Positions 4,865 through 56,742 are shown, counted from the stretch's first letter. The stretch: DNA of 64,000 nucleotides from Planctomycetota bacterium (GCA_017859745.1 JAFMML010000008.1:7027-71026); one strand, 5' to 3'. Made by a program: numbers and translations. Notes: generated from the letters alone by a model not told the origin.

Positions 4865-4897
4865 GTGGGTCGGGACTTCGTCGGCGTGCCGTGACGC

Positions 4898-5905: not shown

Positions 5906-5935
5906 GGTCGTGCTCCTGTCCGAATCATCGGCCCA

Positions 5936-10707: not shown

Positions 10708-10857
10708 GCCTTTGGACTCGCGACGGGGTGTTCTCGTGCCGGGTGGTCATCGGCAACCGGTGTTGCGATCGTCACCAGAGGACCAGCGACCCATCCTCGA
10801 TGGACGGGGTGCTGTGGTTCTAGGACCAGCGAAGAGGTTTCGTTCACAGGAACATCA

Positions 10858-15997: not shown

Positions 15998-16507
15998 TCA
16001 TCGCACCCGTGGCCCAACCGCGACGGCGGGGAGACCGACCGACACGACATCGGCCGGCAGCACACCCGCGACCTGGGAACGCGCCCCGACGACCGTGCCG
16101 TCTCCAATGAGGGATTCGGGAAGCACGATGGTCTCCGCCGCAATCCAGCATCCACTTCCAATCCGAATCGGTCCTTCACCGACGCCGACCGCCGCGGTCA
16201 GCAACGCCACGCCCTGACTGATGGTGGTCCCGCGACCAATCGTCACCGGATGACGGCCCGAGATCATCGCCTTGTCGCCGATCATCGCTCTTGCGCCGAG
16301 CCGAAGCTGCCATGGCGCATCGATGCTCACGGAACGCCGCACGCGAGCGCCGCGTTCGATGCTGGCGCCGAACATCCGAAGCACCACGTTGCGAAGTCCA
16401 TACGCGACGTGCGGCGTGAAGCGAAGGCACCATCGGCCACATCCCGACCACATCATGCGACGCAGTCGGCTGGGGTCGGACTGGACACCTGTGGACACGG
16501 TGCTCAC
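15998..16507 (-). CDS. WcaF-like hexapeptide-repeat O-acetyltransferase
   Basis: WcaF-type N-terminus (LRNVVLRMFGASIERGARV...APWQLRLG) followed by left-handed beta-helix repeats. The GTG start overlaps the upstream stop (GTGA). Confidence 0.7.
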   Translation of the reverse strand: MSTVSTGVQSDPSRLRRMMWSGCGRWCLRFTPHVAYGLRNVVLRMFGASIERGARVRRSVSIDAPWQLRLGARAMIGDKAMISGRHPVTIGRGTTISQGVALLTAAVGVGEGPIRIGSGCWIAAETIVLPESLIGDGTVVGARSQVAGVLPADVVSVGLPAVAVGPRVR

Positions 16508-17049
16508 GACGACACCTCGTTGGCCGATGTCTCTTCATCCACACGGGCCGGATTGCCTCGCACTCGGGTATCCGGCGGGACATCTCGAAACACCGCCGCT
16601 TGAGGCGCAACGCCGGATCGCTCGCCGACTCGTACGCCCGGACCGATGAAGGCCGACGCCCCGATCCTCGCATCCGCGCCGATGTGGATCGGGCTTCGAA
16701 TCAACGGAAACCCGGGAGCTCGATGGTCGTGAGTACCCGCACACAGGTGCGCTCTGACGTCCACTTGCGCTCCCGACTCCAGTTCGATCTCGCCCAACGA
16801 ATACAGGACGACCTCGTCGCCGATCATGACGTCGTCGCCCACACGGAGGTGCCAAGGCACCGCGATCTCGACACCCCGTCCGATGTGGCAACGTGAGCCC
16901 ACACGGCCACCAAACAGGCGGACAAGCATCACCCGAGTCGTCGAACAGCACCCCAGCACCGCCCAGGTCGTCGACCACAGCGTCCGACCGAGCTTGGCCT
17001 TGAACGACCACGACGAGCGCCGCGTCGGCTCCAGGTCCCTCTCGCTCAT
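16504..17049 (-). CDS. WcaF-like hexapeptide-repeat O-acetyltransferase (second, tandem)
   Basis: LVRLFGGRVGSRCHIGRGVEIAVPWHLRVGDDVMIGD...CAGTHDH...GNPAR. The start was set at ATG 17049 (MSERDLEP). Confidence 0.7.
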   Translation of the reverse strand: MSERDLEPTRRSSWSFKAKLGRTLWSTTWAVLGCCSTTRVMLVRLFGGRVGSRCHIGRGVEIAVPWHLRVGDDVMIGDEVVLYSLGEIELESGAQVDVRAHLCAGTHDHRAPGFPLIRSPIHIGADARIGASAFIGPGVRVGERSGVAPQAAVFRDVPPDTRVRGNPARVDEETSANEVSS

Positions 17050-17271
17050 GGCGATGTCGGTCCATGCAGCCGTCCGACCTCGTCGGCCAACGTCCAATGC
17101 GAGGTATGCGTCCGGCCGAACCGCGTGCACGGTTGCAGGGGGAGAAGGCCAGACGTCCCGGCCATGGTGTCGCGAACCAGCACCGCCGACGCATGAGAAG
17201 CTCCTGCACTCCCCTCGCCATGCGGTGCATCGAGCAGCGATCGATCGATGCTGCAGTCGCCAACCGTCCGT

Positions 17272-18795
17272 TCAATCATCTGATCGCTCCATCTCGGGAT
17301 CGCGCGGGCGGCCTCGCCGTCTCAACAGTTCGAGGCCCCATCGCAACTGGCCCCTCTCGAAGACCGCAACGAACGTGCTCCATCCAGCGAGGAAGATCGA
17401 CAGGCCGATCACGCCGTCAGCAAGATCGATGTTCGCGGAACTGGGCCAGTGTCCCCAGAACCACACTGCAAGGACGCCGGTGGCCAAGGCCAGAATCCCC
17501 GGGCCGAGCCACCGGAGCATCGACATCGGGCGAACCCCGATCAGGCGCAAGGCCGAACACTGGATCGTCACGCCGATCAATGCCCGCTGCACGGCGACCA
17601 GCCACACCAACGCCGCCAGATCCTCGCCGAAGATCGAGGCGCCTACGAACACCACTGCGATCAAGGATGCGCCGTCCACGGCGTTCAGCACCGCGACCCG
17701 AACCCATCGCGCGTGGACCTCCATCAGCGCGAACCCAACCGGCGACGCGGCCCTGACCGCGGTGGAGAGTGCCACCGCCTGAACGACCACGATGGACTCG
17801 TCCCAACGCCCGTCCCAGACCAGATGCACCAGAGCGGGCGAGAGGAGTGCCAGCGCTGCGCAGACGGGCGGGAGCAGCAGATTGACCGTGCCGATTGCGC
17901 GGCGTGCCGCCGCACGCAGTCGAACGGGATCGTCTCCGACCCCCGTCAGGCCCGGCAGCAGGACGGATCGGAACGACGCCATGAAGAGCTGCATCGAGGC
18001 CACGGCCAACTGGAAGCCGAAGAAGTAGACGCCCAACACCTTCGGGGCAGCGATCGTGAGCGCGAGGTAGTCGCCCCGTCCGGCGAGCGTCAGCGCCGTG
18101 TTCGCGGCGACGATCCATCGCGTCGATCGCAGGACGTCCAACACCGAATCGGCACGACCGTCGCAGGCAGGCTTCGGCAGAGTCTTCGCCTGTCGCGCAA
18201 GCAAGGCCCACTCCACGGGCAGACTCGCAACGAGTGGGATCACGAACGCGAACGCTCCCAGGCCCGACAGCGCCAGCACCACCGACAGCACACCGCGAAA
18301 CACGATCGCCACGACCTCGGTCCGTGCGACGGTCCCGAATCGCATGGCATGCCGAAGGCGAGTTCTCAGCATGGATACCGGCGTCCGCGTCGCAGCGTGG
18401 ACCGCCATCACACCGAGAACACCGGCCAGCACCGCATCGCCTCGCCACCACCATGCCCACGCCGCGATCCCCAGCACCGCCAGACCCGCGAGGCCGTTGG
18501 CGAGGTACGCGATGCGGGTCGACGCAGCGATCACGCGGCCGTACGAATCTCCGCTACGAAGCAGAAACCGTTCGGCACCCCCGTCGAGCAGCGCCGCCGC
18601 AACCAGATTCAAACCCAGAGCCGCGGCATAGATGGCGAAGTCCTCGGGGACGAGGACCCAGCCGAGCACCACCTGGACCCCCATCCCGACCGCCTTGCCC
18701 GCCATCGCTCCGGCCATGACCCACGCCGCTCCAAAGGCGACCTGCCGACCGATCGAGGCCTTGGGCGCCGAAGCTTCGGTGGGTGATGTGGACAT
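17272..18795 (-). CDS. wzx: polysaccharide flippase (Wzx / PST family)
   Basis: 507 aa with about 12-14 hydrophobic segments. The N-terminus is typical of PST-family polysaccharide biosynthesis proteins, and the gene sits in a glycan locus. Confidence 0.65.
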   Translation of the reverse strand: MSTSPTEASAPKASIGRQVAFGAAWVMAGAMAGKAVGMGVQVVLGWVLVPEDFAIYAAALGLNLVAAALLDGGAERFLLRSGDSYGRVIAASTRIAYLANGLAGLAVLGIAAWAWWWRGDAVLAGVLGVMAVHAATRTPVSMLRTRLRHAMRFGTVARTEVVAIVFRGVLSVVLALSGLGAFAFVIPLVASLPVEWALLARQAKTLPKPACDGRADSVLDVLRSTRWIVAANTALTLAGRGDYLALTIAAPKVLGVYFFGFQLAVASMQLFMASFRSVLLPGLTGVGDDPVRLRAAARRAIGTVNLLLPPVCAALALLSPALVHLVWDGRWDESIVVVQAVALSTAVRAASPVGFALMEVHARWVRVAVLNAVDGASLIAVVFVGASIFGEDLAALVWLVAVQRALIGVTIQCSALRLIGVRPMSMLRWLGPGILALATGVLAVWFWGHWPSSANIDLADGVIGLSIFLAGWSTFVAVFERGQLRWGLELLRRRGRPRDPEMERSDD

Positions 18796-19069
18796 CGATG
18801 GCGACGCTGCAGGAGGAGAGTTCTCGGACGCAGGGCAGGGACTTGCAACCCCGCCAAGTTGGATATCGGATGAACACCCCGCACGGCGGAGGGGCTCGAT
18901 CGGTTTTCATCGAGTTGTCGGCACCACCAGCGGATTTCGCCGACGTTCCCGTCGACGCGGCCCGCGGACGAGGTCGATCATCTCCGACGACTCGCAGCGA
19001 CGGCGAGCACCGCATTCTCTCCGGACCGAACCGCCACCACGACCGGGCCGTCGGGCCGAACTCGAACCC

Positions 19070-19972
19070 ATGCGACCACCCCCGATCCTCGACTGGTTCG
19101 CGAAGCGATGCCTGCCGCCGGCAGTCGCTCGCCGCGCCAAGCTGATCGCCTCGGTGCCGAGGTACCACCTTCACCGGCGGGCCTGTCGTCGTGGGTGGCT
19201 CGCACATGGCGATCGCTATCCGCACCACCTGCTGTTCGTGGCGGGACTTCCGAAGTCGGGGACCACCTGGGTCGAACGGATGCTCTCGAGCGTTCCGGGA
19301 TTCGGCTCCCTCCTGATCCCAGAGGTCAATCGCCACGAGTTGGATCATGGCGAGAGCCACACCTTCGAACTGCCGGACGACTTCGCCTCCCGGTTCGACC
19401 GCATGCTCGTGATCACCAAGATGCATGTGCATGGGTCGATCCACAACTGCCGCGTGCTCGGCGACGGAGACGTCCCGTATGCGATCGTCCATCGAGATCT
19501 CCGGGACGTGGCGATCAGTCACATCCACTACGTCCGCAGCACTCCGTGGCACCCCGAGCATCGGGACTACGCGAACCTCGACATCGAACGAGGCCTGAGA
19601 CACTTCGGCGAGACCCTGCTCTCGCCCTACGCCGACTGGGTGCGCAGCTGGCACCGGCACCGCGATCCCGCCATCAGCACGATCGTGGCCTACGAGGAGA
19701 TGCTTCACGATCCATCGAAGGCGCTGACGCGAATCGTCGAGACCTTTCGCCTTCCGCTCGATCGGGACCGGATCGAAGAGATCGTCGCCGCGCACGACTT
19801 CACCCGGATGAGCGGCGGGCGCCGTCCTGGCGAGGAGCGCGCCGACGCCTTCGTGCGCAGCGGAACGGCCGGAGGCTGGCGCCGTCACTTCACGCCGGAA
19901 CTCGAGTCCCGCTATCGAGAAGTGCTTGGGCGGTTTCCCACCGACCTCGGTCTGCCGCCGTTGGACTGGTGA
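19070..19972 (+). CDS. PAPS-dependent sulfotransferase
   Basis: 5'-PSB loop LPKSGTTW and 3'-PB motif VHRDLRDVAIS. The start was set at ATG 19070, because the upstream part of the ORF is antisense to wzx. Confidence 0.75.
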   Translation: MRPPPILDWFAKRCLPPAVARRAKLIASVPRYHLHRRACRRGWLAHGDRYPHHLLFVAGLPKSGTTWVERMLSSVPGFGSLLIPEVNRHELDHGESHTFELPDDFASRFDRMLVITKMHVHGSIHNCRVLGDGDVPYAIVHRDLRDVAISHIHYVRSTPWHPEHRDYANLDIERGLRHFGETLLSPYADWVRSWHRHRDPAISTIVAYEEMLHDPSKALTRIVETFRLPLDRDRIEEIVAAHDFTRMSGGRRPGEERADAFVRSGTAGGWRRHFTPELESRYREVLGRFPTDLGLPPLDW

Positions 19973-20086: not shown

Positions 20087-23000
20087 TCAGGGACCCTGTT
20101 CGCCCGGTTCGGAAAGCAACGCCTCGATCTCGGCCTTGACCTCTCCCAGGCGCTGGTAGACGTGCTCCGAGGTGGCGAGGTCGAGTTCGACCTTCAATTG
20201 TGGATCGGACCAGACGGCGGGTTCGACGCCGCCGAGGAAGTCGTAGGTGAAGGCGAATCGCGCCTCCGCCTGAAGCACCCCGAGGGTCTCCGCGGAGGTC
20301 GCCGCACGAGTCCAGTAGGACAGACCCGTCCAGAACGCCACACCGGTTGCGCCCATCTCCACGAGCGGACGCACCTGATCGCGAAGCAACTCCTCGAGCG
20401 TCATCTGCTTCATGTTGTATTCGATGGTGCCGACCTTCCAGAACATGGGGCTGACCATCGGGACGATCTCCTTCGGCTCGCCGCCGTTGGCGGTGTTGAA
20501 CCGATTGCACAGCTCCATCTGGTAGCGGCGGAACGCGGTCTCCCGCGCGGTCACCGAGTTCCAGGACGACTCGCCGAAGAGGGCGAGTTCGTATCGGTCG
20601 TAGACGCTGGGGTTGATCCAGTCCATCTCGCGAAGAACCGGCGTGTAGTTCGCAAGCGTCGAGGACAGCTCGGCCTCCTTGGCCTCCTCGGTGGCATTCG
20701 CCCAGTTGCTGTTGTTGAACCAGTAACGGAGGCGAGGCATGCCGTACATCGACCACTGCACCATGGGAAACTCCGATCGCACCGTCTGCAGCAGGTTGAC
20801 GATGGTGTCGACGGTCAGCTGGTAGTTGGGATCGGCCGGACCGGCCTGCAGCCGATCGAGGAACGGATTCTCGAAGTCGAGGATGCCGTAGCCGCTGGGG
20901 CTGTCGCCGTGCTTGCTTCGAATCGCCTCGACGACCAGGGCCGCGTCGATCACACCGGTCGAGGACGCGTTGGGATCGACTCCCTCGTAGATGATGATGT
21001 ACGGCAGATGGCCCTGCTCGATCGCCAGATCGTGGAACGTCGCGTCGGGAAGCGGATCGAACATGAGCTTCGCGCTCGTGGAGGGCCGCGGGTTCACGGG
21101 ATCGACGAGCACGGTTCGGAAGACCGCACGAAGGTTGGTCCCGTTGGGGACGCCCATCTGCGATGCGGCCAGTTCCGTCGACAGGGTTCCCGAAGTGGAG
21201 GACCCGGTCGCGTAGGGGGTGAATCGGAAGACGTCGCTCCGACCGGCGCCGAAGGAGCCCGCGGAGACGTTGCCCTTCGAGGACATGAGCAGCGATCCGT
21301 CGGCATCGGCGAAGACCGCGTCGAGCTTCTCGTTGTTGTTGGAGAAGCCGACGTCCGATCCGTCGAAGTGCATCGACCACGCGCCCGCCGTCGCCTGACC
21401 CAACGAGGACGGGACGAACCGCATCAGGTCCTGACCCTTGAAGGGCGGCACTCCGGGAAGGGAACCTCCGTTCTGCGTGGCGATCAGCAGGGATCCATCG
21501 GCCATCGCGGAGACGGCGGCGATCGCCTGATCTCCGCTGCTCGAGAGGCCGACATCCGAACCGTCGAAGTGGAAGTGCCACATGCCGGCGGTGACCTCGC
21601 CGAGCTGGTCTGGCGAGAATCGAACAAGGTCGTAGGCGTCGACGGTGCTGCCGTTGGGACCTCCCACGAGACCCCCGACGACTCCGCCACCTTCGATCGC
21701 CATGAGCAGTTCCCCGCTCTCCAGCACCGATGCGGCCGCGATGGTCAGACCACTCAGGCCGACATCGTCTCCGTCGAAGAAGACGTTCCACGACCCCGTC
21801 GCGGAATTGAACGCCGCAAGATCGCATCCGTCGACGACCAGATCGCCCGGCAGTGTGGTCGCGCCGCCGAACGACCCCACCAGAAGCGGCACCGGCATGC
21901 AGGGCTCGCACAAGGCCGCAGCGTTCGCAACGCAGTTCTCGTCCCACACCGTCGAGCAGCAGAGCGGATCGACCGAACACACCAGTTCGCAGCAGGCCCC
22001 GTCCGCGCAATATGGCGTGTCGTGAACGGTGCAGCAGTCTCCCGCGGTCTGGTCCCCGCACGCCGACGGGGGATTGACGCCGCCGCCACCGCCACCGCCG
22101 CCGCCATCCCCGGGGCGCTCGCCGACCGGCCAGGAGAAGGTCACCATGGCGAAGGCAGCGACGTTGTCGCCGTTGGAGAGGCCCGAGGCCGTGCCGTCGA
22201 ACCAGTCGTAGAAGACTCCGCTGCTTGCAGACCCGAGGGAACTCGGCGTGAAGCCCATCAGGTCCCCACGACCCGCGGACACGCCCGGCACAGAGGCGTT
22301 GCCTCTGGTCGAGATCAGCAGATCGCCCGTCGCGGTCGTGCCGATCGCATCGATCGCCTCGTTGTTGTGACTCAGGCCAACGTCGGATCCATCGAGATGA
22401 ACCGACCACGAGCCCGCGGTCGCAGCACCCAGCGAGGAGGGTGCGAAGTGCACGAGGTCCTGCTTCGCGAAGGAGCCGACGCCCGGAAGCGAACCTCCGC
22501 CTTCGAAGGACATGATCAGAGAGCCGTCGTCGAGAGCGGCCACGGCGGAGATCGACATTCCGCCCGATAGACCGACATCGGATCCGTCGAACAGGAACGA
22601 GAGCGTGCCGGCGGTGTAGCGCCCGACCGTCTCGGGCGTGAATCGAACGAGGTCCACCGCGTCGACGGCTCCGCCCGCGGGCCCGTCGGCGAGGTCGGCG
22701 ACGAATCCGCCTCCGGCGATCGCAAGGACCAGGTCCCCGTTCGCCAGCGCAGCGACCGCCGAGATCGACGCGCCGCCGAGGCCGATCGCATCTCCATCGA
22801 GAAACAGGCTCCATGAACCGGTCGCATCGTCGTACGCCGCCAGATCGCCCCCACCGATCGCAAGCCCGCCCGGGAGCCCGGCGGCGCCGCCGAAGCCCAT
22901 GACCGCACGGGTGATCGGCTCGCAGCCTCCGCAGAGTTCGCCCGCATTGCCGGCGCAGTACTCGTCCCATCCGACGTCGCAGCAGTAGGGATCGGCGTTG

Positions 23001-23182
23001 CAGACGAGCGTGCAGCACGCCTCATCGCTGCACCCGATGCCCGAGTGGGGCTGGCAGCAGTCGCCCGCGCCCGGATCGCCGCACTGGGCCTGAACGGCGA
23101 CGGTGGCCAGTCCCGACATCAGCATGGCGAAGCACGAACACACACGCGAACGAACGACGGTTCCAGGTCGAAGACGGGGCAT
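20087..23182 (-). CDS. secreted modular protein: 2 x (12-Cys module + 4 repeats) + C-terminal GH56-like (hyaluronidase-like) TIM-barrel domain
   Basis: Signal peptide MPRLRPGTVVRSRVCSCFAMLMSGLATVAVQAQ. An internal duplication is separated by a Gly9 run. The C-terminal domain carries GYGILDFENPF, WSMYGMPRLRYW, NPSVYDRY and GATGVAFWTG. The CDS itself is secure; the family assignment is inference. Confidence 0.65.
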   Translation of the reverse strand: MPRLRPGTVVRSRVCSCFAMLMSGLATVAVQAQCGDPGAGDCCQPHSGIGCSDEACCTLVCNADPYCCDVGWDEYCAGNAGELCGGCEPITRAVMGFGGAAGLPGGLAIGGGDLAAYDDATGSWSLFLDGDAIGLGGASISAVAALANGDLVLAIAGGGFVADLADGPAGGAVDAVDLVRFTPETVGRYTAGTLSFLFDGSDVGLSGGMSISAVAALDDGSLIMSFEGGGSLPGVGSFAKQDLVHFAPSSLGAATAGSWSVHLDGSDVGLSHNNEAIDAIGTTATGDLLISTRGNASVPGVSAGRGDLMGFTPSSLGSASSGVFYDWFDGTASGLSNGDNVAAFAMVTFSWPVGERPGDGGGGGGGGGVNPPSACGDQTAGDCCTVHDTPYCADGACCELVCSVDPLCCSTVWDENCVANAAALCEPCMPVPLLVGSFGGATTLPGDLVVDGCDLAAFNSATGSWNVFFDGDDVGLSGLTIAAASVLESGELLMAIEGGGVVGGLVGGPNGSTVDAYDLVRFSPDQLGEVTAGMWHFHFDGSDVGLSSSGDQAIAAVSAMADGSLLIATQNGGSLPGVPPFKGQDLMRFVPSSLGQATAGAWSMHFDGSDVGFSNNNEKLDAVFADADGSLLMSSKGNVSAGSFGAGRSDVFRFTPYATGSSTSGTLSTELAASQMGVPNGTNLRAVFRTVLVDPVNPRPSTSAKLMFDPLPDATFHDLAIEQGHLPYIIIYEGVDPNASSTGVIDAALVVEAIRSKHGDSPSGYGILDFENPFLDRLQAGPADPNYQLTVDTIVNLLQTVRSEFPMVQWSMYGMPRLRYWFNNSNWANATEEAKEAELSSTLANYTPVLREMDWINPSVYDRYELALFGESSWNSVTARETAFRRYQMELCNRFNTANGGEPKEIVPMVSPMFWKVGTIEYNMKQMTLEELLRDQVRPLVEMGATGVAFWTGLSYWTRAATSAETLGVLQAEARFAFTYDFLGGVEPAVWSDPQLKVELDLATSEHVYQRLGEVKAEIEALLSEPGEQGP

Positions 23183-23390
23183 GTCGACGCGACTCCTGTG
23201 ACTTGAGGGTGGCCGGCACATCACAGCGCCGACGGTCCAAGGGAGAATCGCATCGATTCGGGGCACGACACGCCGGGCATGTTCCCCAACCGCGCCTGCA
23301 GAAGGTGGTCCCGCTGCCAGTGGTGACCCCAAACGACGAACGCCCCGCCGAAGCGGGGCGCTCGTGATCAGTTGGATTCCGACGAGTCGA

Positions 23391-24494
23391 TCAGGGGCAG
23401 ACACCCCAGTTCGCAAGCAGGATCGACAGGTCCGCGGCATCGACCACGCCGCTGTTGTTGAGATCCGCCGACACCGGAACGCCGATCGGCGAGAAGCCCC
23501 AGTAGCCGATCATGATGCTGATGTCGGACCCGTTGACGTCGCCATCGTTGTTGATGTCGCCCTGGCACCCCGTGCACAGGACGTTCTTGCCGATGTCCTC
23601 GTACTGCCCGGAGATCGCGTCGGGGAAGTTGCCGCAGATCTCGGTGTTCGAGAGGGCCAGATCGCTGAAGCCGGGACGCACCCAGATGCCTCCGCCGGTG
23701 ACGGCCACGTTGCTGGTCACGCTGCAGCCGGTGACGACCATGCCGTCTCCGAAGCTGTTCCACGTGAAGCCGCCGCCGGTCGCCGCGGTGTTGTTCGCGA
23801 AGACGCAGTCGACGACGACCGGAGTGCCGCGAGTGAAGTGGACGCCTCCACCGAAGGATTGCGGAGCCCGGTTCAGGGTGAAGGTGCATCCGGTGAAGAG
23901 GACTCCTCCTCCCCAGCACTGGGCGCCACCACCGTCGGTGTTCGCGTAGTTGTCGTGGAAGACCGTTCCGGAGACCTCGGAGAAGCTCTCGCGGAAGTAC
24001 GCACCACCGCCGAAGCCGGACTGGTTCTCGGTGACGATGCAGTCGACGATGGTCGGCGACGACTGGTCGACGTACATGCCGCCACCGAACGTGTAGAAGG
24101 GAAGCGGCTCGTAGATGGTGCCGACGATCCCGTTGGTGATCGTGAAGCCTTCCAGGATGGTGTCCGGGCCTTCCCCGCTGACGGCGGTCACCACCGATGC
24201 CTTGGCACCGGTGCCATCGATGGTCGTGGCTGCGGCCCCGTCGGAGGATCGAACGACGATCGCCTTGCCGAGGAAGTCGATCGACTCGGTGTAGACGCCA
24301 GGAGCGACGAGGACCACGTCGCCACCCACCGCAGCGTCGATCGCCGACTGGATGGTGGGGTAGTCCCCCGGGACATCGATGGTCGTACCCGCGGTGGCGA
24401 TCCCGCCAGCGGCGAGAAGCGAGGCGACACCCGCACCAACAAGAAGCGATCGGGACTTGCTGGACATGGTGGACATGGTGGACATGCTGGACAT
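23391..24494 (-). CDS. secreted right-handed beta-helix protein with C-terminal dockerin-type repeats
   Basis: Signal/TM segment LLVGAGVASLLAAGGIATA, repeated GGG-containing beta-helix turns (GGGMYV, GGGAYF, GGGVLF, GGGVHF, GGGFTW, GGGIWV), and C-terminal GDINNDGDVNGSDISIMIGYWG and ADLNNSGVVDAADLSILLANWG. Confidence 0.7.
   Translation of the reverse strand: MSSMSTMSTMSSKSRSLLVGAGVASLLAAGGIATAGTTIDVPGDYPTIQSAIDAAVGGDVVLVAPGVYTESIDFLGKAIVVRSSDGAAATTIDGTGAKASVVTAVSGEGPDTILEGFTITNGIVGTIYEPLPFYTFGGGMYVDQSSPTIVDCIVTENQSGFGGGAYFRESFSEVSGTVFHDNYANTDGGGAQCWGGGVLFTGCTFTLNRAPQSFGGGVHFTRGTPVVVDCVFANNTAATGGGFTWNSFGDGMVVTGCSVTSNVAVTGGGIWVRPGFSDLALSNTEICGNFPDAISGQYEDIGKNVLCTGCQGDINNDGDVNGSDISIMIGYWGFSPIGVPVSADLNNSGVVDAADLSILLANWGVCP
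24459..24494 (-). repeat. 4 x 9-bp tandem repeat (ATGTCCASC) at the very start of the beta-helix gene
   Basis: The coding strand reads ATGTCCAGC ATGTCCACC ATGTCCACC ATGTCCAGC (MSS MST MST MSS), giving four in-frame ATGs. Confidence 0.9.
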
Positions 24495-24745
24495 GGTCTT
24501 CTCCTGAATCAATCTCGACGGGAGTCCGTCGGCGGCCCCCTTGGGAATGGTGTAACCCTCGCTCGCCGGTTGCACAAGCACCCGCGAGCGAAGATGCGCA
24601 GGGTTCGGGACTTCTCCCCACGCCGAACCCCCTCGGTCGTTCACCGACTGCGCGCAAACCGATGGCGTCCAAGGAGCTCCTCGGCGGCCGAGGGCATCCC
24701 GGCACTCGGCGCCCGGTGTCGATCCTCCACGACCGATAACCCGGT

Positions 24746-26095
24746 TCAGGTGGCGACGGGCACGGGCGAGTCCTCCACTCCACCCTCGGCGACCTCGTCC
24801 TCGTACTCGAAGTCGTGGTCCTCCATGAGGACCTCTCTCGACTCGTACTCGCGGCAGGTCCGCGCAAGCATGATCGCGAAGGTGTAGAGCAGGGGGTTGC
24901 CGAGCATGTTGCCCTGCTTGTTGGCCAGGATGAAGTGGTAGATGAGCAGGCCCAGCAGCACGCAGACGTTCGCTCTCGCCACCGGATCGTGTCGGACCAT
25001 CCGCTCGAAGCGGAAGCCGGTCCGAACGACCGTATAGATGATGAACATCAGCAGCGAGAAGCCGATCAGGCCGCCTTCGCCGAGAGCGTCGGCCAGCAGC
25101 ACGTGGGTGTAGTGGACGCCGGACCGACTCTCGACCGAGGCGAATCCGTACAGGCCCAGTCCCTGCAGCCAGTGGGTCGGCGACTCGGCGTAGGCCGCGA
25201 GCAGGTCCACGCAGTTCTCGACGCGTTCCGAACCGCCGAACGCGAGACTCTCGACCGCCCAGCGACGGTCGTTGTCCTGGGTGACGAAGGCATCGACGGC
25301 GAACATCAGTCCGCCGGCGAACAGCACACCCGCCAGCGCCGTCAGTCCGAGGCCGCGTGCCGAGAGCGCCCGGAAGTTGATCGGAACCATCGCGAGGATG
25401 GCGATGACCGCACCGATCAGCTGGCCGCGAGATCCCGAAAGCAGCGCCAGACCCGCACCGACGACCACCGCCGCGGAGCGGATTCCGATGGACGTCAGGC
25501 CCGGCCTCACCAGCAGGGTCAGAGCCCCCATCAGCATGACGTTGCCGCCGAGCGTTCCGAGTTCCAGCGGATTGCCCCTGTTGTCGGACCCGTAGGCGAT
25601 GCCGAGCCGCGCCGCATTGAGATCGACGTTCGGGCTCACGATGAGCAGACCCGCGATCACGAGACCGGCGATCATGGTGGCGCCGATGAGGCTTCCGACG
25701 TCCTCGATGCGCCAGATCAGCATCGGCGCGAGGATCAGGAAGAGGGGCCAGTACGGCAGGGCCCTGACGGTCTCCAGCTGGAACGCCCACTCCGTGCGGC
25801 TCCAGAGGCCGGAGGTGTATCCCCACGCGAAGAACGCGAGGCAGGCCAGGCATGTCGGGGTGAACAGGTTCCGGAAGAGCGGCTGACCCGACATGGTGCG
25901 CCGCACCACCGCCCAGACCAGCAGGCCCGCGACCATTCCGTTCAGGAGCACCGGGCGATCCACGAAGATCGCCGCGGACGCCTGCAGCAGCACCTCCAGC
26001 GGATACATCACCACCAGCGCCGTGACCGCCCAGATCGGCGACCACAGCGCCATGACCAGCAGTGCGGCGAGCGCGATCAGCGGAAGGCGAGCCAT
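24746..26095 (-). CDS. wzy: O-antigen polymerase/ligase-family membrane protein (Wzy-like)
   Basis: 449 aa with about 10-12 TM segments and a large loop. The layout is typical of Wzy_C/O-antigen ligase family proteins, and the gene is positioned in a Wzx/Wzy-type locus. Confidence 0.6.
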   Translation of the reverse strand: MARLPLIALAALLVMALWSPIWAVTALVVMYPLEVLLQASAAIFVDRPVLLNGMVAGLLVWAVVRRTMSGQPLFRNLFTPTCLACLAFFAWGYTSGLWSRTEWAFQLETVRALPYWPLFLILAPMLIWRIEDVGSLIGATMIAGLVIAGLLIVSPNVDLNAARLGIAYGSDNRGNPLELGTLGGNVMLMGALTLLVRPGLTSIGIRSAAVVVGAGLALLSGSRGQLIGAVIAILAMVPINFRALSARGLGLTALAGVLFAGGLMFAVDAFVTQDNDRRWAVESLAFGGSERVENCVDLLAAYAESPTHWLQGLGLYGFASVESRSGVHYTHVLLADALGEGGLIGFSLLMFIIYTVVRTGFRFERMVRHDPVARANVCVLLGLLIYHFILANKQGNMLGNPLLYTFAIMLARTCREYESREVLMEDHDFEYEDEVAEGGVEDSPVPVAT

Positions 26096-26163
26096 CTGTT
26101 CAGTTCATCGGTCATCTGCGATCGTCGTCCGTCGATCCACCGACCCGATTCTCAACCGCCCTC

Positions 26164-29100
26164 TCAGGAGTCCGGGACGCCCGCCAGACGGGTTGCGAGG
26201 ATCGACTGGGCCTCGAGGCGGCCGATCTGCACGGTCTCGCCGACGCGCTCGGACACGCGGGCCTCGAGTTCGCTTCGGATCGAGTCGTCGACCCAGGCCT
26301 CGGGGGCGTCGTCGAGGAAGTCGTTCGCCATGGCGACACGGGCCTCCTGCTGCAGCACTCCCAGATCGTCCGACGACGTCACCGCGTGGGTCCAGTAGTT
26401 GAAGCCGGTCCAGAACGCGATGCCGTCCGCACCCGCCTCCATCACCGGCCGGACCTGATCGCGGAGCAGCTCCTCGGCGGTCATGTACTTCATGTTGTAT
26501 TCGATCTGCCCGACCTTGAAGAAGAGCGGGCTGACCATCGGGATGATCGGCTTGTCCGGGCCGGCGTGACCTTCGTTGAACCGCCGACACAGTTCGACGG
26601 TGTACTCGCGCCACGACGTCTCGCGATCGGTCCACATCTGCCACGAGGGCTGGTTCTGCCGCTCGAGCTCGTATCGGTCGTAGACGCTGGGGTTCATCCA
26701 GTCGCAACGCTCGAGCACCGGAGTGAACGCCTCGAGGGCCGCCTCGAGAAGCTCCTCGCGATCGGGATCGTCCGCCGTCGCCCAGCCATAGGAACCCGGA
26801 GGCCCCCAGTACTTGATGCGCGGCATGCCGTACATGGTCCACTTCACGTTGGGGAACTCCGCACGGACCCGATCGAGCAGCGCGACGATCGTGTTCACCG
26901 TCGACTGGTAGTGCGGATCCGAGGGGCCCGCCGAGATCCGCTCGAAGAACGGATTCTCGAAGTCGAGGATGCCGTAACCGCTCGGCGAGTCGCCGTGCTT
27001 GGTCCGGATGTGCTGCACCACGCGGTCGGCGTCGATCTGGCCGGTCGTCCGGGCATCGGGGTCGACCGCCTCGTAGACGATGAGGTACTGCTCGATGCCG
27101 TCGGCCTGCAGCCCGGCGACGACCGTGTCGCTCGGAAGGCCGTCGTAGAGCACCGTCACCGTCGAGTTCTGGTTCGGCGGAGTCGGCTCGCCATCGCCGC
27201 CGTCGCCGATGGGAATGGTCGGATCGACCGACGGGGGCGTGCCATCGGGTGTGGTGCCGGTCTCGGACTCGCCGGCGTCGTCGCCGTCGGACCCGGTCGA
27301 ATCGGCATCCGCGGCATCGGGATCCCCGCCGTCCGAACCACCGCCGGCGGGATCTCCACCCGGAGCGGCGTTGCCGGTCTGCGAGGACAGATGGATCGCC
27401 AGATCCGCGCCGTCGATCACGCCGTTTCCGTCGAGATCACCGTACGCCGTGTCGGTCCATCCACCGTCCGACACGGCTCCATCGGCATCGACGGACGTGA
27501 AGTTGCGCTGCCGCAGGCGAAGCTTCGGCTTCGATCGACTGCCGCGAGAGGGAGACGTCGAGACGTTTGCGGGCGCCGTGCCGAAGCCGCCATCTCCAGC
27601 GAGTCGGATCGCCAGGTCGGCGCCATCGACGAACCCATCGCCGTTCAGATCTCCGCCGTTCATGCGGGGATCGGTGCCGGAGTAGTCGTCCTCTTCGAAG
27701 CCGTAGTCCGTCCATTCCGCCTCGGCCCCTCCCGAGAGCCAGATGGCCTGGTCCGCGCCGTCGATCACCCCGTCGCCGTTGAGATCCTGGTTGGTGAAGC
27801 CGAGTCCGCCGTCCGCGAACGCGGCATCCGAAGGATCGACTCCGAACGAGGCACCGTCGTTCGGCGAGGACGAGTCGGCGGTGCGAAGCGTCGGACCGGA
27901 AGTCCTCTTGCCCCCAGGCACCAGACCGCCTCCGGTCGCCGCGGGACCGGCGAACTCGCCCTCGTCTCGAGTGGCGAACTCCGGGAACTCGGACGCGACC
28001 GCGGCATCGTGCACCAGCCACCCGCCCGACTGTCCGGCATCGCGACGGACGATGGTCGAGTCGCCGTCGACCGACACGGCCAGCTGCGTGAACCCGGGGG
28101 CGAAGGTGATTCGCCAGACCATTTCACCGTCGGCCGCGCCCACGCCGGTGGCGAAGAATCCGCTGCCGCTTCGGGACTCCCACGACGAGCGGGCCGATGC
28201 GAAGAACGCACCCGCCCACTCCTCCGCGGCGGTCTGCTCGAGAATGCCGTCGAAGCGAACGCCATCCTGGGGATCGGCCGTCCCGCGATCCTCGACGTAG
28301 AGCACCGCACCGTCGCCGATCAGAATCGCGTGCCGCACGAGTTCATCCCACATCGACGTGCCGACCACGAACGAGCGTCGCTCGCTCGAACCGGGATGCG
28401 AGAAGGGGATCACGCGAGGCAGGACCGCCGTGCCGCCACTCCGCCGCGTCACCGCGGACTCGATCTGGTCCCGAAGCTCGTCGAAGGACGTGGCCGCAAA
28501 TCCCGCCGTCGTGCTGCGGACCCCAAGCTCCATCGACCACGAACCCGTGGTCGGGCCGTCGCCAGCGGGAGCCGAGACCACCACCATGTCCGGCGAGGCC
28601 TTGCGAAGACCTTCCGCCGAACGCTCCACCGCCTGGGCGAGGGTGGCGTCGGCGAACTCGTTCCAGAGATCCCACTGATCGCTCGATGGCGTCATCGCGC
28701 CCTGGAGCGTCAGTGAACCGGGGCGAACGTCGTCGAATCGAGAGTCGTTGCGAATGGCGATCCACACGAGATCGTCGGGCGTGTCCAGCACCGCCGCCGA
28801 GATCGGGCTCTCGCCCTCGACCAGCAGCAGGTCGACCGACTGCGAGGACGCCGCGAGTCGCTTTGCCAGCGCCGAGAGCTCCTCGGTTGCCGCGGAGATT
28901 CCGCCGTCGAGCCAAGGGCCCGAGTGGTCGGTGATGTGCCCAGCGACCACGACGTGGTCGCTGGGATCCTGAGACAGCGTCGTCAACAGCGACCGCGTCG
29001 CGAGACCCCGACGACCGGCGGGCATCGAGGCGAACCGGGTCTCGATCGTCGCGACGTCCGAATCCTCGATCACCAGCAGCGGGGCGAATCGCGACGACTC

Positions 29101-29223
29101 GAATCCGGTGTCACCCAGCACCCAGGCGAAGACCGACTCCTGCTCGGAGGAGGTCTCAACCGCGTTCGGCTGAGCGGGGAACAGGAGCGAAGCGAGGCAG
29201 AGCGAGGCAAGTGGGGTCCACAT
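26164..29223 (-). CDS. secreted protein: unknown N-terminal domain + 3 dockerin/EF-hand-like repeats + C-terminal GH56-like domain (paralog of 20087-23182)
   Basis: Signal peptide MWTPLASLCLASLLFPAQP. Repeats DLNGDGVIDGADQAIWL, DLNGDGFVDGADLAIRL and DLDGNGVIDGADLAIHL. C-terminal GYGILDFENPF, WTMYGMPRIKYW, NPSVYDRY and GADGIAFWTG. Confidence 0.65.
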   Translation of the reverse strand: MWTPLASLCLASLLFPAQPNAVETSSEQESVFAWVLGDTGFESSRFAPLLVIEDSDVATIETRFASMPAGRRGLATRSLLTTLSQDPSDHVVVAGHITDHSGPWLDGGISAATEELSALAKRLAASSQSVDLLLVEGESPISAAVLDTPDDLVWIAIRNDSRFDDVRPGSLTLQGAMTPSSDQWDLWNEFADATLAQAVERSAEGLRKASPDMVVVSAPAGDGPTTGSWSMELGVRSTTAGFAATSFDELRDQIESAVTRRSGGTAVLPRVIPFSHPGSSERRSFVVGTSMWDELVRHAILIGDGAVLYVEDRGTADPQDGVRFDGILEQTAAEEWAGAFFASARSSWESRSGSGFFATGVGAADGEMVWRITFAPGFTQLAVSVDGDSTIVRRDAGQSGGWLVHDAAVASEFPEFATRDEGEFAGPAATGGGLVPGGKRTSGPTLRTADSSSPNDGASFGVDPSDAAFADGGLGFTNQDLNGDGVIDGADQAIWLSGGAEAEWTDYGFEEDDYSGTDPRMNGGDLNGDGFVDGADLAIRLAGDGGFGTAPANVSTSPSRGSRSKPKLRLRQRNFTSVDADGAVSDGGWTDTAYGDLDGNGVIDGADLAIHLSSQTGNAAPGGDPAGGGSDGGDPDAADADSTGSDGDDAGESETGTTPDGTPPSVDPTIPIGDGGDGEPTPPNQNSTVTVLYDGLPSDTVVAGLQADGIEQYLIVYEAVDPDARTTGQIDADRVVQHIRTKHGDSPSGYGILDFENPFFERISAGPSDPHYQSTVNTIVALLDRVRAEFPNVKWTMYGMPRIKYWGPPGSYGWATADDPDREELLEAALEAFTPVLERCDWMNPSVYDRYELERQNQPSWQMWTDRETSWREYTVELCRRFNEGHAGPDKPIIPMVSPLFFKVGQIEYNMKYMTAEELLRDQVRPVMEAGADGIAFWTGFNYWTHAVTSSDDLGVLQQEARVAMANDFLDDAPEAWVDDSIRSELEARVSERVGETVQIGRLEAQSILATRLAGVPDS

Positions 29224-29650
29224 GACGACGAACTCCAGTGGCGGGATCGAACCGTAGCTTGACCGGGTGACCGCCTCCGAACGGAGGCTGCCGCCCAACG
29301 GGGTTGAGATCGGCTCGTCCCATCCGCCTGATGAGGGGATCCGCTCGGGAAACGACTCCTCCCGACCGGACCGCGTGATCCTTCGCAACCTGGCGGGACG
29401 AGTACGGGCCGGACGACCCGGCCTAGGACCGAGAATCGAATCGAACCACGTCGACGGGACCTTCCTTGTTCGCGAAGGGGGTCCCGATGACCGATCGAAC
29501 CACCTCGCGTCCGAGATTCTGCAACCGACAGATCGTCCGCTCCACCTGCAAGTCGCCCTCACGGTCGCTCGCCGGCTCGTAGGATCCTCCTGTTCCCCAA
29601 CCCCGGTGCAGGCGTCTCCCGACGCCACTCCGAAGTCCCTCCCGTCCAGC

Positions 29651-30916
29651 ATGTCCCATCGCCAGCGAAGAGGCATCCTCGTTTCCGGCGGCTACTCCTG
29701 CGCCAATCGCGGCGACTGGGCGCTCGGAGCCTCGGCGGTGCAGGCGATCCAGCGCAGCGATCTCGAGTCCCCAACGCTTCTGCAGGTGTTCGAACCGACC
29801 GACGACGTGCCGATCGAGGAGCGGTGCGAGACCATCGCCATGTGGCCGTCGTGGCGCAAGCGGTGGCATCGCGTGGGCAGCCTGGGCAGCCGGAACCGGT
29901 ACTACCGCCTTCAGATCGCCGACATGCGCCGGCATCTAGACGACGCTCGGCGTCGCCTCGAGGGGAAGGGCGCGCAGGGCACCCCGATCCTCTGGATCTG
30001 CGGCGGCGGCGTCATGAACGACGTGGCGAGTCACGGTCCCTTCACGGCGCGCCTTGGAACGATCGCGGCCGAGGAGGGCTGGGAGGTCCTGATGACCGGT
30101 CAGACCATCGGCCCGGTCCGCACCCCGAGGTTTCGCGAAGGCCTCGAGGCGTTCCTGCGAAGCTGCCGGTGGATCGGCGTTCGCGATGTCGACAGTCTCG
30201 AGCAGCTGCAGGCCATGGACGGGCTGAGCGCCGAGCCGGTCCGCAGGCTCGACGACGTGTTCTACATGCGTCCAATCGCCTCGGGATTCGCCGATCCGGA
30301 CCGCTATCAGCGGTCGACCGGCATGCCGCCTCCCGCCACGCCCTTCGTGCTGCTGACCCTGCACGCGCAAGGCGGAACTTCGGCGCCGATCGGCTGGCCC
30401 GAGGTCTCCCGAACCATCGAGGAGATCGAACGAACCGGGCGGCGCGTGGTGCTGGTCAACTTCGCCGGCCACGCCACGCCCGAGGATCGCGACATGGCCG
30501 CGCTGCGATCGGCGCATCCAGACGTCGCCCTGCTGCCGTGGAGCACCGACGTGCCGTCGCTGCGCGAACTGGCGGCCAGTGCCGATCTGGTCGTCTCCAC
30601 CCGCTTCCACGGACTCGTCTTCGCCCTGCACGCCGGCACGCCCGCGGTCACCACCCACGCCGGCAGCTACTACCGAACCAAGACATGGCGTCTGATGGAG
30701 GAGTGGGGTCTGGAGCGGTTCGCCGCCGACGTCTCCGAGGGATGGTCCGAGGTGCCGGGCCTGGTGCGAGAGGCGCTGGGCTCGCTCGAGGAGATGCGCG
30801 AGGTCGTCCGACTTCGCCGCCCCGACGAGATCGGCACGCTCCAACCGATGCTCGTCGCACATCTCCACGCCGCCGAACGCGAGGATCCGATCGTCCCGAC
30901 GGGAGGCTCGACGTGA
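29651..30916 (+). CDS. polysaccharide pyruvyl transferase family protein
   Basis: N-terminal GILVSGGYSCANRGDWALG (compare the CsaB/WcaK GNLGD motif) and C-terminal STRFHGLVFAL. The start was set at ATG 29651. Confidence 0.7.
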   Translation: MSHRQRRGILVSGGYSCANRGDWALGASAVQAIQRSDLESPTLLQVFEPTDDVPIEERCETIAMWPSWRKRWHRVGSLGSRNRYYRLQIADMRRHLDDARRRLEGKGAQGTPILWICGGGVMNDVASHGPFTARLGTIAAEEGWEVLMTGQTIGPVRTPRFREGLEAFLRSCRWIGVRDVDSLEQLQAMDGLSAEPVRRLDDVFYMRPIASGFADPDRYQRSTGMPPPATPFVLLTLHAQGGTSAPIGWPEVSRTIEEIERTGRRVVLVNFAGHATPEDRDMAALRSAHPDVALLPWSTDVPSLRELAASADLVVSTRFHGLVFALHAGTPAVTTHAGSYYRTKTWRLMEEWGLERFAADVSEGWSEVPGLVREALGSLEEMREVVRLRRPDEIGTLQPMLVAHLHAAEREDPIVPTGGST

Positions 30917-31935
30917 GGATCGGACTGCTGCTCCCCGCCGCCATGGCCGTCGACGGCCGCGGCAACGGCATCCGCGCCCAGGCGATCCACCAGATGGAGG
31001 CCCTGCGCCGACTCGGGCACGACGTCGTCCCGATGCAGCCCTGGGAGGAGTACGACTCGGCGTCCTTCGACGTGGTGCACTTCCTCCTCGGCGGTCCTTC
31101 CGTGCACGGCCTCGCCGCCCGCCGCAGGGTCAGTCTGCGGATGCTCTCCTTCGCGCCGATCATCGACACCAACGAGTCCTTCTCGCGCTACCGCCTGGCC
31201 GCGCGACTCGGCGGCCTGACCCCGAAGGTCTTCACGATTCCGGGCATGTACCGCGAGCAGGCCATGGCAAGCGACCTCGTGGTCTGCCGAAGTCGTCACG
31301 AGCGCGACCGGATGGTGAAGGGCCTCGGCATCGACGACGCGAAGTGCCGCATCGTGCTCAACGGCGTCGACCCGCCACCACCGGCGGACGGCGATCGAGC
31401 TCGACGCAAGTTCGGACTCGACGGGGACTTCCTTCTGCACGTCGGTGCGTTCACGCAGGCTCGGAAGAACGCGGTGCGCCTGGCCGAGGCGGCGATCGCG
31501 GCGGAGCGCCCGCTGGTCATCGCCGGCCGCAGCGATCCGGGCGCAACCAGAAGCCGCCTCGACGAACTCGCCGCACGATCCGGTGGCCTGATTCGAATCC
31601 TGGAGTTCCTCGAGCGCCGGGACCTCGAGGACCTCTACGCGGCGTGCCGGGTGTTCTGCCTGCCCAGCGTGCACGAGGGCACCGGGCTCGTCGCCCTCGA
31701 GGCGGCCGCCCACGGCGCGGGCGTCGTCGTGACCCGCCACGGCGGGCCGCCCGACTACTTCGGCGAGGACGCTCGATACGTCGATCCCGCCAGTCGCGAG
31801 GACATCGCCAGGGCGATCTCGGAGGCATGGGAAGATCCCCGCGGAGACCGCCTCCGCCAACACGTCGCCGGCCTCACCTGGGAGGCTTCGGCGCGATCGC
31901 TGGTCGAGGCGTTCGAATCGCGGCGACCGAGCTGA
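30913..31935 (+). CDS. glycosyltransferase family 4
   Basis: The GTG overlaps the upstream stop (GTGA) and GGGAGG lies 6 nt upstream. GT-B C-terminal motif VFCLPSVHEGTGLVALEAAAHGAGVVVT. Confidence 0.7.
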   Translation: MRIGLLLPAAMAVDGRGNGIRAQAIHQMEALRRLGHDVVPMQPWEEYDSASFDVVHFLLGGPSVHGLAARRRVSLRMLSFAPIIDTNESFSRYRLAARLGGLTPKVFTIPGMYREQAMASDLVVCRSRHERDRMVKGLGIDDAKCRIVLNGVDPPPPADGDRARRKFGLDGDFLLHVGAFTQARKNAVRLAEAAIAAERPLVIAGRSDPGATRSRLDELAARSGGLIRILEFLERRDLEDLYAACRVFCLPSVHEGTGLVALEAAAHGAGVVVTRHGGPPDYFGEDARYVDPASREDIARAISEAWEDPRGDRLRQHVAGLTWEASARSLVEAFESRRPS

Positions 31936-31965: not shown

Positions 31966-33027
31966 CTACTGGTCGTGGCCGAGCGTGGCCGGAAGATCGT
32001 GCCCGGCATCGCGAAGGACCTTCTCGCGCTCGGCGAGTTCGAGGTCGTGCTCGACCATCATGCTGGCGAGTTCCTCCACGCTGGTGCGAGGCTCCCAGCC
32101 GAGCTTCTCCTTCGCCTTGGTCGCGTCTCCAAGCAGCTGATCCACCTCGGCGGGTCGGAAGTACTTCTCGTCGATGGTGACCCACTCGTCGAAGTCGAGA
32201 TCGAGGTGGGCGAAGGCCATCTTCCCGAACTCCTTCACCGAGATCATGCGGCCGGTCGCGATGACGTAGTCGTCCGCCTCGGGCTGCTGCAGCATCAGCC
32301 ACATCGCCTCGACGTAGTCCCGCGCGAAGCCCCAGTCGCGCTGCGCGTCGCAGTTGCCCAGATACAGCCGCTTCTGCAGTCCCAGCTTGATGCGGCCGGC
32401 GGCGCGGGTGATCTTCCGCGTGACGAAGGTCTCGCCGCGTCGCGGACTCTCATGGTTGAAGAGGATGCCGCTGGAGGCGTGCATCCCGTAGCTCTCGCGG
32501 TAGTTGACGGTGATCCAGTGCCCGAAGACCTTCGCGGCGCCGTATGGCGAACGGGGGTGGAAGGGCGTGGTCTCGCGCTGCGGAACCTCGCGGACCTTCC
32601 CGAACATCTCCGAACTCGAGGCCTGGTAGTAGCGGACCTGCTTTCCGCTCCAGTCCTGGAAGGTCCGGACCGCCTCGAGCATGCGAAGGGTGCCGAGGCC
32701 GTCCACGTCCGAAGTGAAGATCGGCTGGTCGAACGAGACCCGGACGTGGCTCTGGGCGCCGAGGTTGTAGACCTCGTCGGGCTTCACCTCCTGCAGGAGC
32801 TGCGACAGGTTGTTGCCGTCGGTGAGGTCGCCGTAGTGCAGGAAGAGCCGGGTGCCCTGCTCGTGCGGATCCCGGTAGAGGTGGTCGATCCGACTGGTGT
32901 TGAAGGTCGCCGATCGGCGGATCACGCCGTGGACCTCGTAGCCCTTCTCCAGCAGCAGCTCCGCGAGGTAGCTGCCGTCCTGTCCGGTGATGCCGGTGAT
33001 GATGGCGCGTCGGCTGGATCGTTGCAT
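31966..33027 (-). CDS. gmd: GDP-mannose 4,6-dehydratase
   Basis: [51 protein letters not shown] and [21 protein letters not shown]. Confidence 0.92.
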
Positions 33028-40815: not shown

Positions 40816-40903
40816 GGCTTCCAGAGTTCATCGGACACGCGACGCCTCGGATCGAAACCCGAGCCGGTCTTACGATACGAACGGCCCCAGGCCCCAGACA
40901 CCC

Positions 40904-56684: not shown

Positions 56685-56742
56685 CCCGCCGATGCGACGC
56701 AGGTTGCCGAGGAGGCTCGAGAGCGGCGAAACGGTTTCGGCC

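Follow-up and report, generated by a model that had tools for sequence, protein, structure and literature searches.

The window analyzed here comprises 64,000 nucleotides from a Planctomycetota bacterium (GCA_017859745.1 JAFMML010000008.1:7027-71026) and has a G+C content of 65-70%. A Wzy-dependent polysaccharide cluster occupies about 16.5 to 40.8 kb of it, and within this cluster two long open reading frames (ORFs) on the minus strand, ORF A and ORF B, bracket the gene for a Wzy-type polymerase. A preliminary description had presented the C-terminal domains of both predicted proteins as animal- or venom-type catalytic domains of glycoside hydrolase family 56 (GH56), the hyaluronidase family. 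Our analysis secures the homology to GH56 and places the two domains in a divergent bacterial branch. The gene order on the minus strand was as described: ORF B, wzy, a beta-helix/dockerin gene, and ORF A. The features of this block, all on the minus strand, are as follows.

20087-23182, minus strand: ORF A, a predicted exported protein of 1031 amino acids (aa) with a signal-like N-terminus followed by two Cys-rich/repeat modules in tandem; the GH56-like domain is at the C-terminus.
20087-21100, minus strand: putative GH56-like catalytic domain of ORF A, 337 aa, a seven-stranded beta/alpha barrel in the structural model.
20870-20878, minus strand: Asp-Phe-Glu codons of ORF A; the encoded residues, 75-77 of the domain, align with bee-venom D111-F112-E113.
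21083-23083, minus strand: two tandem repeats of ~325 aa (ORF A residues 34-700; 52% identity by self-BLAST, E 4e-107).
23391-24365, minus strand: beta-helix protein of the PMP-repeat type that ends in a type I dockerin (Dockerin_1, 8.5e-9; Chlam_PMP, 3.7e-5).
24746-26095, minus strand: Wzy-type polymerase of 449 aa (Wzy_C, E 1.7e-6, 28.3 bits, below the Pfam cut-off of 31.7 bits).
26164-29223, minus strand: ORF B, a predicted exported protein of 1019 aa that combines an N-terminal TIM barrel of GH-like type and a beta-sandwich with Ca-binding loops and, at the C-terminus, a GH56-like domain.
26164-27186, minus strand: putative GH56-like catalytic domain of ORF B, 53% identical to that of ORF A (family profile, E 1.4e-121).
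26956-26964, minus strand: Asp-Phe-Glu codons of ORF B, located in the sequence.
27379-27816, minus strand: three dockerin/EF-hand-like Ca-binding loops (DLNGDGVIDGAD type; DLNGDGVIDGADQAIWL and similar) in the ORF B linker between the two barrels.
27994-29136, minus strand: N-terminal domain of ORF B (residues ~30-410), a second beta/alpha barrel plus beta-sandwich.

ORF A and ORF B are paralogous in their C-terminal parts. Similarity detected by BLASTP was limited to the C-terminal ~333 aa, where 175 of 333 residues are identical (53%, E 5e-112), in agreement with the earlier view that the last ~310 aa are clear paralogs. Two nucleotide strings quoted in the preliminary description as conserved each occur once per gene and nowhere else, at 20409/26489 and 20861/26947, with none expected by chance, and the Asp-Phe-Glu codons lie exactly where they had been placed. 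At the DNA level the paralogous domains share 68.7% identity over 798 nt, and since their longest identical run is only 30 nt, the duplication is old. The same two figures rule out a recent gene conversion between ORF A and ORF B. Database proteins agree with the start sites of both ORFs: ORF B matches P0008 (1019 aa) over its full length at 99.2% identity, and ORF A matches P0010 (1025 aa) colinearly at 52%.

The fold of the C-terminal domain was modeled for ORF A. The AlphaFold2 (AF2) model (337 aa; predicted local distance difference test score [pLDDT] of 86, predicted template-modeling score [pTM] of 0.85) has seven main strands alternating with helices according to DSSP, and the barrel of bee-venom hyaluronidase likewise has seven strands. 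The preliminary description had proposed a structural comparison with bee-venom hyaluronidase and HYAL1. In a Foldseek search of the PDB, the top six matches to the model were all six of the solved GH56 structures (E 2.1e-7 to 5.9e-5), namely, HYAL1 (2pe4), Ves v 2 (2atm), bee-venom hyaluronidase (1fcq, 1fcu, and 2j88), and PH-20 (9jub). The next fold in the ranking followed at E 1.7e-3, a gap of ~30-fold from the weakest GH56 match and of about four orders of magnitude from the best matches, and a GH18 chitinase reached only E 6e-3. Model and search together thus assign the domain to the distorted beta/alpha barrel fold of bee-venom hyaluronidase and HYAL1. The folds of other hydrolases of exopolysaccharide (EPS) systems were rejected as the identity of the domain: PslG (GH39), PelA (GH166), PgaB (GH153), Sph3 (GH135), Ega3 (GH114), and BcsZ (GH8) were all absent from the top 50 structural matches.

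At the sequence level, only the broader family profiles reach GH56. A phmmer search of PDB sequences with the ORF A domain gave no meaningful match, nor did a nine-sequence profile. For profile-profile alignment, four GH56 PDB sequences were used: the bee-venom comparison sequence, which was checked and is 100% identical to PDB 1fcq chain A, and three more taken from PDB alignments. Against these, hhalign gave a probability of 86.9% for the nine-sequence alignment and of 98.2% for the 135-sequence family (E 5.2e-14, 192 columns), and all five motif pairings with bee-venom hyaluronidase that had been drawn in the preliminary description were reproduced. A hidden Markov model (HMM) built from 108 sequences, including both window proteins (A3), and an HMM built from a distant subset of the family (A4) each retrieved GH56 chains only from the whole PDB, with 1fcq at E 5.5e-8 and E 7.6e-12, respectively. 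The Pfam model of the family, PF01630, is reached transitively: eight distant family members exceed its gathering score of 23.2 bits (27.1-36.6 bits), and the score of P0062, a protein with the domain order of ORF B, is 13.3 bits. With these independent routes converging, we regard the GH56 homology of the C-terminal domain as secure, with high confidence.

The residues at the center of GH56 catalysis are retained. In GH56 enzymes (bee-venom numbering), Glu113 is the acid/base, Asp111 orients the 2-acetamido group of the substrate, which acts as the nucleophile, and two Tyr residues and a Trp hold this acetamido group. By hhalign, D75/E77, Y119, Y167, and W257 of the ORF A domain align to bee-venom D111/E113, Y184, Y227, and W301. 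The Asp-x-Glu pair, which is D129/E131 in HYAL1, was aligned DFE to DFE in three separate alignments, and Y119, Y167, and W257 take the places of the acetamido-positioning aromatics Tyr184, Tyr227, and Trp301. These five residues are among the most conserved positions of the 135-member family (D75, 96%; E77, 99%; Y119, 84%, with Trp in a further 13%; Y167, 97%; W257, 96%). In the AF2 model, each catalytic-type residue lies at or just past the C-terminal end of a successive barrel strand, and the C-terminal strand ends form the catalytic face of TIM-type barrels. Because the Asp-x-Glu pair and the Tyr/Tyr/Trp set are kept, we infer that the domain is a retaining endo-beta-N-acetylhexosaminidase with substrate-assisted catalysis. 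Such an enzyme would cleave after a beta-linked N-acetylhexosamine (HexNAc) and may also transglycosylate.

The family to which the two domains belong is broad. When 1.84 billion cluster representatives were searched exhaustively with an HMM, 290 members were identified at E<=1e-3 and 184 at E<=1e-10, which corrected the impression of a tiny family given by a word-indexed homolog search with the domain, which had returned only 7 relatives. Nearly all come from metagenome-assembled genomes (MAGs) of Phycisphaerales/Planctomycetota, and all those that have a name are annotated "hypothetical protein." On this basis the window organism is assigned to the Phycisphaerales. The window sequence itself was found identical in JGI metagenomes Ga0075475/77/79. 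In a rough neighbor-joining tree, ORF A-type and ORF B-type domains are sisters to each other, with the Pfam-positive proteins in a clade outside both. Bacterial proteins that pass PF01630, such as MSR71578.1 (Candidatus Taylorbacteria) and NNM25808.1 (Phycisphaerales), thus belong to the same HMM-defined family as the window domains (E down to 1e-17 with profile A1) and share the same conserved residues. They differ from them in lying in the outer clade, in their partner domains, often PG_binding_1, and in the absence of a wzy or polysaccharide context, and they are likewise uncharacterized. Pfam-positive members P0128, P0143, P0137, and P0121 are fused to one or two PG_binding_1 domains, and one such fusion comes from Candidatus Taylorbacteria (candidate phyla radiation, CPR). 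P0128 is encoded at positions 5268-7208 of locus L015, without wzy or polysaccharide genes around it. These fusions may be peptidoglycan-directed GH56-type enzymes.

The claim of an animal- or venom-type domain therefore stands in part. Remote homology to GH56 is upheld by Foldseek, hhalign, the family HMMs, and the transitive Pfam matches, but membership in the animal/venom type is contradicted by the identity to GH56 structures of only 12-17% and by the Pfam result for the window proteins given below. The window domains are best described as a divergent bacterial sister branch of the GH56 fold family. A recent acquisition from animals by horizontal transfer is ruled out by the same low identity together with the breadth and depth of the bacterial family. 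The statement that GH56 is essentially a metazoan or venom family also needs qualification, since GH56-positive bacterial proteins are present in databases and dbCAN-type GH56 annotations in bacterial genomes already exist. The literature treats glycosaminoglycan (GAG) hydrolases as animal or holozoan enzymes. For a characterized bacterial member of GH56, or for GH56-like enzymes encoded in EPS loci, the searchable literature gave in-silico mentions only, and every characterized GH56 that we know of or found there is from animals or their venoms.

The genomic setting of the ORF B type is conserved. In the window, wzy begins 68 bp downstream of ORF B. In seven distinct loci (the window, L006, L007, L009, L010, L012, and L022), a GH56-like gene lies directly upstream of a gene homologous to the window wzy, in the same orientation and with a gap of 7-75 bp. 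The Wzy homologs of the other loci share 30-43% identity with that of the window (E 1e-53 to 1e-121), and the GH56-like genes upstream of them encode either full-length ORF B homologs (33-35% identity) or single-domain proteins of 360-380 aa. These wzy-adjacent members are scattered across the family tree. In several of the loci, gmd/epimerase genes precede this pair, and genes for Wzx and GT4 enzymes come after it. The P0062 gene follows a UDP-N-acetylglucosamine (UDP-GlcNAc) 2-epimerase gene and glycosyltransferase genes on a contig that stops before the wzy position could be seen. The synteny is drawn from a modest sample; a metagenome scan with profile A1 gave 7 loci, three of which are the window organism itself.

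Because an ORF B-type gene lies directly upstream of wzy in seven loci, its product probably cuts the cell's own exopolysaccharide. On this genomic evidence, we favor the reading that genes of the ORF B type are conserved partners of wzy in an operon, their product most likely acting extracytoplasmically on the presumably HexNAc-containing exopolysaccharide of its own locus. The ORF B enzyme would then trim, release, or size-limit EPS chains, as ExoK/ExsH, PslG, PelA, or BcsZ do elsewhere. The preliminary description had proposed trimming of the locus's own polymer for both paralogs. Linkage to the core synthesis genes supports this for the ORF B type but not for the ORF A type, whose orthologs lie elsewhere. 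ORF A may nevertheless act on the same polymer as ORF B in this locus. We found no report of wzy coupling of a GH56-like gene in the literature searched, and this coupling appears to be new.

The other genes of the polysaccharide cluster are listed here.

16504-17130, minus strand: hexapeptide-repeat acyltransferase (Hexapep, 1e-9).
17272-18795, minus strand: Wzx-type flippase (Polysacc_synt_3, 3.7e-27).
18632-19972, plus strand: sulfotransferase, with the domain in the C-terminal half of the ORF (Sulfotransfer_1, 7.4e-24), convergent with ORF A.
29267-30916, plus strand: polysaccharide pyruvyl transferase (PS_pyruv_trans, 2e-17); the true start is probably later, as in a 421-aa gene in L004.
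30838-31935, plus strand: GT4 glycosyltransferase (Pfam scan).
31966-33027, minus strand: GDP-mannose 4,6-dehydratase (GDP_Man_Dehyd, 1.7e-144).
33261-34211, plus strand: GDP-fucose-synthase-like epimerase (Epimerase, 2.1e-55).
34241-35479, plus strand: GT4 glycosyltransferase.
35214-37085, plus strand: CE4 deacetylase fused to DUF3473, with the domains in residues 372-615; the listed start is probably too early.
37079-38098, minus strand: epimerase.
38095-39021, minus strand: GT2 glycosyltransferase.
39643-40815, minus strand: GT4 glycosyltransferase.

The cluster thus encodes three GT4 and one GT2 glycosyltransferases. From its gene content, we predict a polymer bearing fucose, pyruvate, acetyl, and sulfate groups, with partial de-N-acetylation; the sulfation is predicted because a Sulfotransfer_1 gene lies within the locus. 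No sulfotransferase gene was seen in the related loci, which are short. DUF3473 we take to be of the type found in PEP-CTERM/exosortase loci. The scanned ORFs of the locus and its surroundings included neither a Wzz-type co-polymerase nor a Wza-type exporter, and several ORFs (3503-4834, 5925-6959, 36171-37916, and 44870-46216) had no Pfam match. At the edge of the locus lies a gene for cysteinyl-tRNA synthetase (40784-42451, plus strand), and such a gene is also found directly downstream of the P0031 gene in L011 (5388-7013, plus strand); this common neighbor may be a remnant of shared synteny. Elsewhere in the window, at 53428-59136 on the minus strand, an open reading frame of 1902 aa overlaps long ORFs in other frames.

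The two proteins differ outside their C-terminal domains. The N-terminal domain of ORF B is common to many family members of 750-1020 aa, as judged by BLAST. Its AF2 model (pLDDT 75.6) gave only generic Foldseek matches to GH36, GH27, GH42, GH13, and GH30 (TM-scores of 0.3-0.4), so that no family is assigned to it, and its invariant residues include W104, D131, D160, E294, and H298; it could be either a second catalytic domain or a binding domain. The loops in the ORF B linker gave weak Dockerin_1 (0.0023) and EF-hand matches. The presence of these loops in ORF B and of a full type I dockerin in the neighboring beta-helix protein hints at a shared mechanism of cell-surface anchoring or assembly.

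In ORF A, each of the two tandem repeats starts with a Cys-rich module of ~55 aa, CGD..GDCC..H....C.D.ACC..VC..DP.CC...WDE.C, and continues with four short 'DL.RF.P...G..T.G.W...FDGSDVGLS' repeats; ORF A, repeats included, has no Pfam or NCBIfam match (E<=1). Orthologs of ORF A adjoin genes for MltA, an FkbM methyltransferase, or an efflux pump in L001, L002, and L003. In L001, a locus of a Phycisphaerales MAG, two genes of the ORF A type lie in tandem at 4229-10731 (plus strand); over ~1000 aa, their products share 54% and 49% identity with ORF A. A convergent gene for an MltA lytic transglycosylase follows the ORF A-type genes in L001 (10769-12124, minus strand) and in L002 (1554-2921, minus strand). 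P0031 of L011 is also encoded outside a polysaccharide locus. We view ORF A as an older paralog, distinct in its N-terminal module and, as a gene type, not tied to polysaccharide loci.

Several observations weigh against the reading of these proteins as GH56-type hydrolases of the cell's own polymer. The preliminary description had proposed a search of both ORFs with the Glyco_hydro_56 profile, and in Pfam scans of the full proteins neither ORF A nor ORF B matches PF01630, even at E<=1; Pfam and NCBIfam scans at the same threshold detected no other catalytic family either. TM-scores of the ORF A domain model to GH56 structures are only 0.42-0.51, with a root-mean-square deviation of about 7 A, the GH56 alignment spans about 190 of the 337 domain residues, and the active-site geometry is read from strand positions in the model. 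In the hhalign alignment, the equivalents of GH56 Trp115/Arg116 fall in a gap and that of Tyr265 is aligned to a variable Met, and the cysteines that we take to form the disulfides of the bee-venom structure have no counterpart in the window domain. The N-termini of ORF A and ORF B resemble Sec signal peptides by eye only, as do those of P0078 and P0081. The orthologs of ORF A in L001-L003 lie outside polysaccharide loci. Within the window locus, the CE4 deacetylase is the sole hint of N-acetylated sugars in the polymer, the locus offering no other proof of a HexNAc backbone, and neither an initiating (phosphoglycosyl) transferase nor a HexNAc-specific nucleotide-sugar gene was found among the scanned ORFs. 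GH56 Arg244 may correspond to the conserved R191 of the domain, which is off by one position in the alignment. Given the missing Trp115/Arg116 and Tyr265 equivalents and the presumed absence of the disulfides, the substrate is unlikely to be hyaluronan itself, and a different polymer is suggested by this residue pattern.

Other explanations were weighed against action on the cell's own exopolysaccharide and are given in falling order of likelihood. The proteins could be secreted endo-hexosaminidases that degrade foreign GAG-like or algal polysaccharides for food, with their position in an EPS locus being incidental. ORF A-type genes outside polysaccharide loci, including the tandem pair in L001, and P0031, which is similarly placed, are in line with such a role, and the multidomain build, in which dockerin-like loops are combined with additional barrel or repeat modules, resembles that of degradative carbohydrate-active enzymes. 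An incidental position does not, however, account for the order of GH56-like gene and wzy kept in seven diverged loci with gaps of 7-75 bp, and no sulfatases, TonB/Sus-like transporters, or sugar-catabolic genes were present beside any member examined. We consider a nutritional role unlikely, although less so than the explanations that follow. Cleavage of peptidoglycan or another cell-wall glycan at GlcNAc-beta-1,4-N-acetylmuramic acid (MurNAc)-type bonds during envelope remodeling would suit the inferred mechanism, as peptidoglycan contains beta-1,4-linked HexNAc. The PG_binding_1 domains that point in this direction are carried by five distant Pfam-positive members (among them P0128, P0143, P0137, and P0121; four by another count), which make up a separate outer clade, and the window proteins have none. 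The convergent MltA gene after ORF A orthologs in L001 and L002 is a further sign of a cell-wall connection, whereas the wzy, Wzx, and glycosyltransferase context of the ORF B type indicates a secreted polymer; on balance, we think a cell-wall substrate quite improbable.

Two explanations concern the domain itself. It might be a noncatalytic barrel, a pseudo-enzyme that binds carbohydrate or serves as a scaffold to guide or anchor the polymer, as could be argued from the missing GH56 substrate-binding residues in a family whose catalysis is predicted from sequence. The catalytic Glu and Asp, however, are conserved at 99% and 96%, along with the acetamido-binding aromatics, across 135 diverged members, a pattern typical of active enzymes, which makes loss of activity very improbable. 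Finally, the likeness to GH56 might be a generic TIM-barrel artefact, the domain belonging to another family or to no known one. This would explain why there is no direct Pfam match, why single-sequence and nine-sequence searches of PDB sequences found nothing, and why the TM-scores are about 0.5. It would not explain why GH56 is the only family recovered by three sequence-profile routes as well as by structure, why the Foldseek E value changes ~30-fold at the edge of that family, or why the catalytic motifs are in register, and of all the explanations it is the one to which we give the least credence.

Action on the cell's own exopolysaccharide, the reading that we prefer for ORF B, has parallels in known systems. 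The window domains resemble the GH56 hyaluronidases (1fcq, 2atm, 2pe4, and 9jub) in their best-matching fold, in the Asp-x-Glu pair, and in the Tyr184, Tyr227, and Trp301 equivalents, all in register. Unlike them, the window proteins are bacterial, have large extra N-terminal modules, and are encoded in a Wzy-dependent polysaccharide locus; their domains also lack what we assume to be standard features of the animal enzymes, the conserved GH56 disulfides and the EGF-like tail of HYAL1. Hydrolases encoded in EPS loci include ExoK (GH16) and ExsH of the Wzy-dependent succinoglycan system, PslG (GH39), PelA (GH166), the C-terminal domain of PgaB (GH153), and BcsZ (GH8). By analogy with these, ORF B is a predicted exported hydrolase encoded within the biosynthetic locus of its putative substrate, with a proposed part in trimming, release, or size control. 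The folds and families of ExoK, ExsH, PslG, PelA, PgaB, and BcsZ are unrelated to GH56, none of them occurred among the top 50 structural matches, and we know of no description of a tight pairing with wzy itself in those systems. Dispersin B (GH20) and the GH18, GH84, and GH85 enzymes are retaining hexosaminidases in which the 2-acetamido group of the substrate is the nucleophile and a carboxylate adjacent to the acid/base holds it in position; the window domain would share this mechanism with them but belongs to a different family.

Sulfated GAG-like exopolymers have been reported in Pontiella, a related bacterium of the Planctomycetes-Verrucomicrobia-Chlamydiae (PVC) group (PMC7356697). The sulfotransferase gene in the window locus makes a parallel with such polymers attractive. 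A more speculative proposal, which we consider improbable, is that GH56, long regarded as an invention of animals and later of holozoans, may reach deep into the bacteria, in a branch that originally worked together with Wzy. In Phycisphaerales, the enzyme would then be an integral, obligate part of a Wzy-dependent pathway for a sulfated GAG-like matrix, maybe setting chain length or transglycosylating and cross-linking chains in place of a classical Wzz co-polymerase. If this proved true, it would constitute a bacterial counterpart of the matrix remodeling performed by hyaluronidases in animals.

For the family as a whole, these results provide a testable function for at least 290 cluster representatives so far annotated "hypothetical protein," and they could yield new endo-hexosaminidases for glycan analysis. 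The family also serves as an outgroup for asking about the origin of the animal hyaluronidases. In planctomycetes, it offers a candidate enzyme for the shaping or dispersal of an exopolysaccharide that is possibly sulfated.

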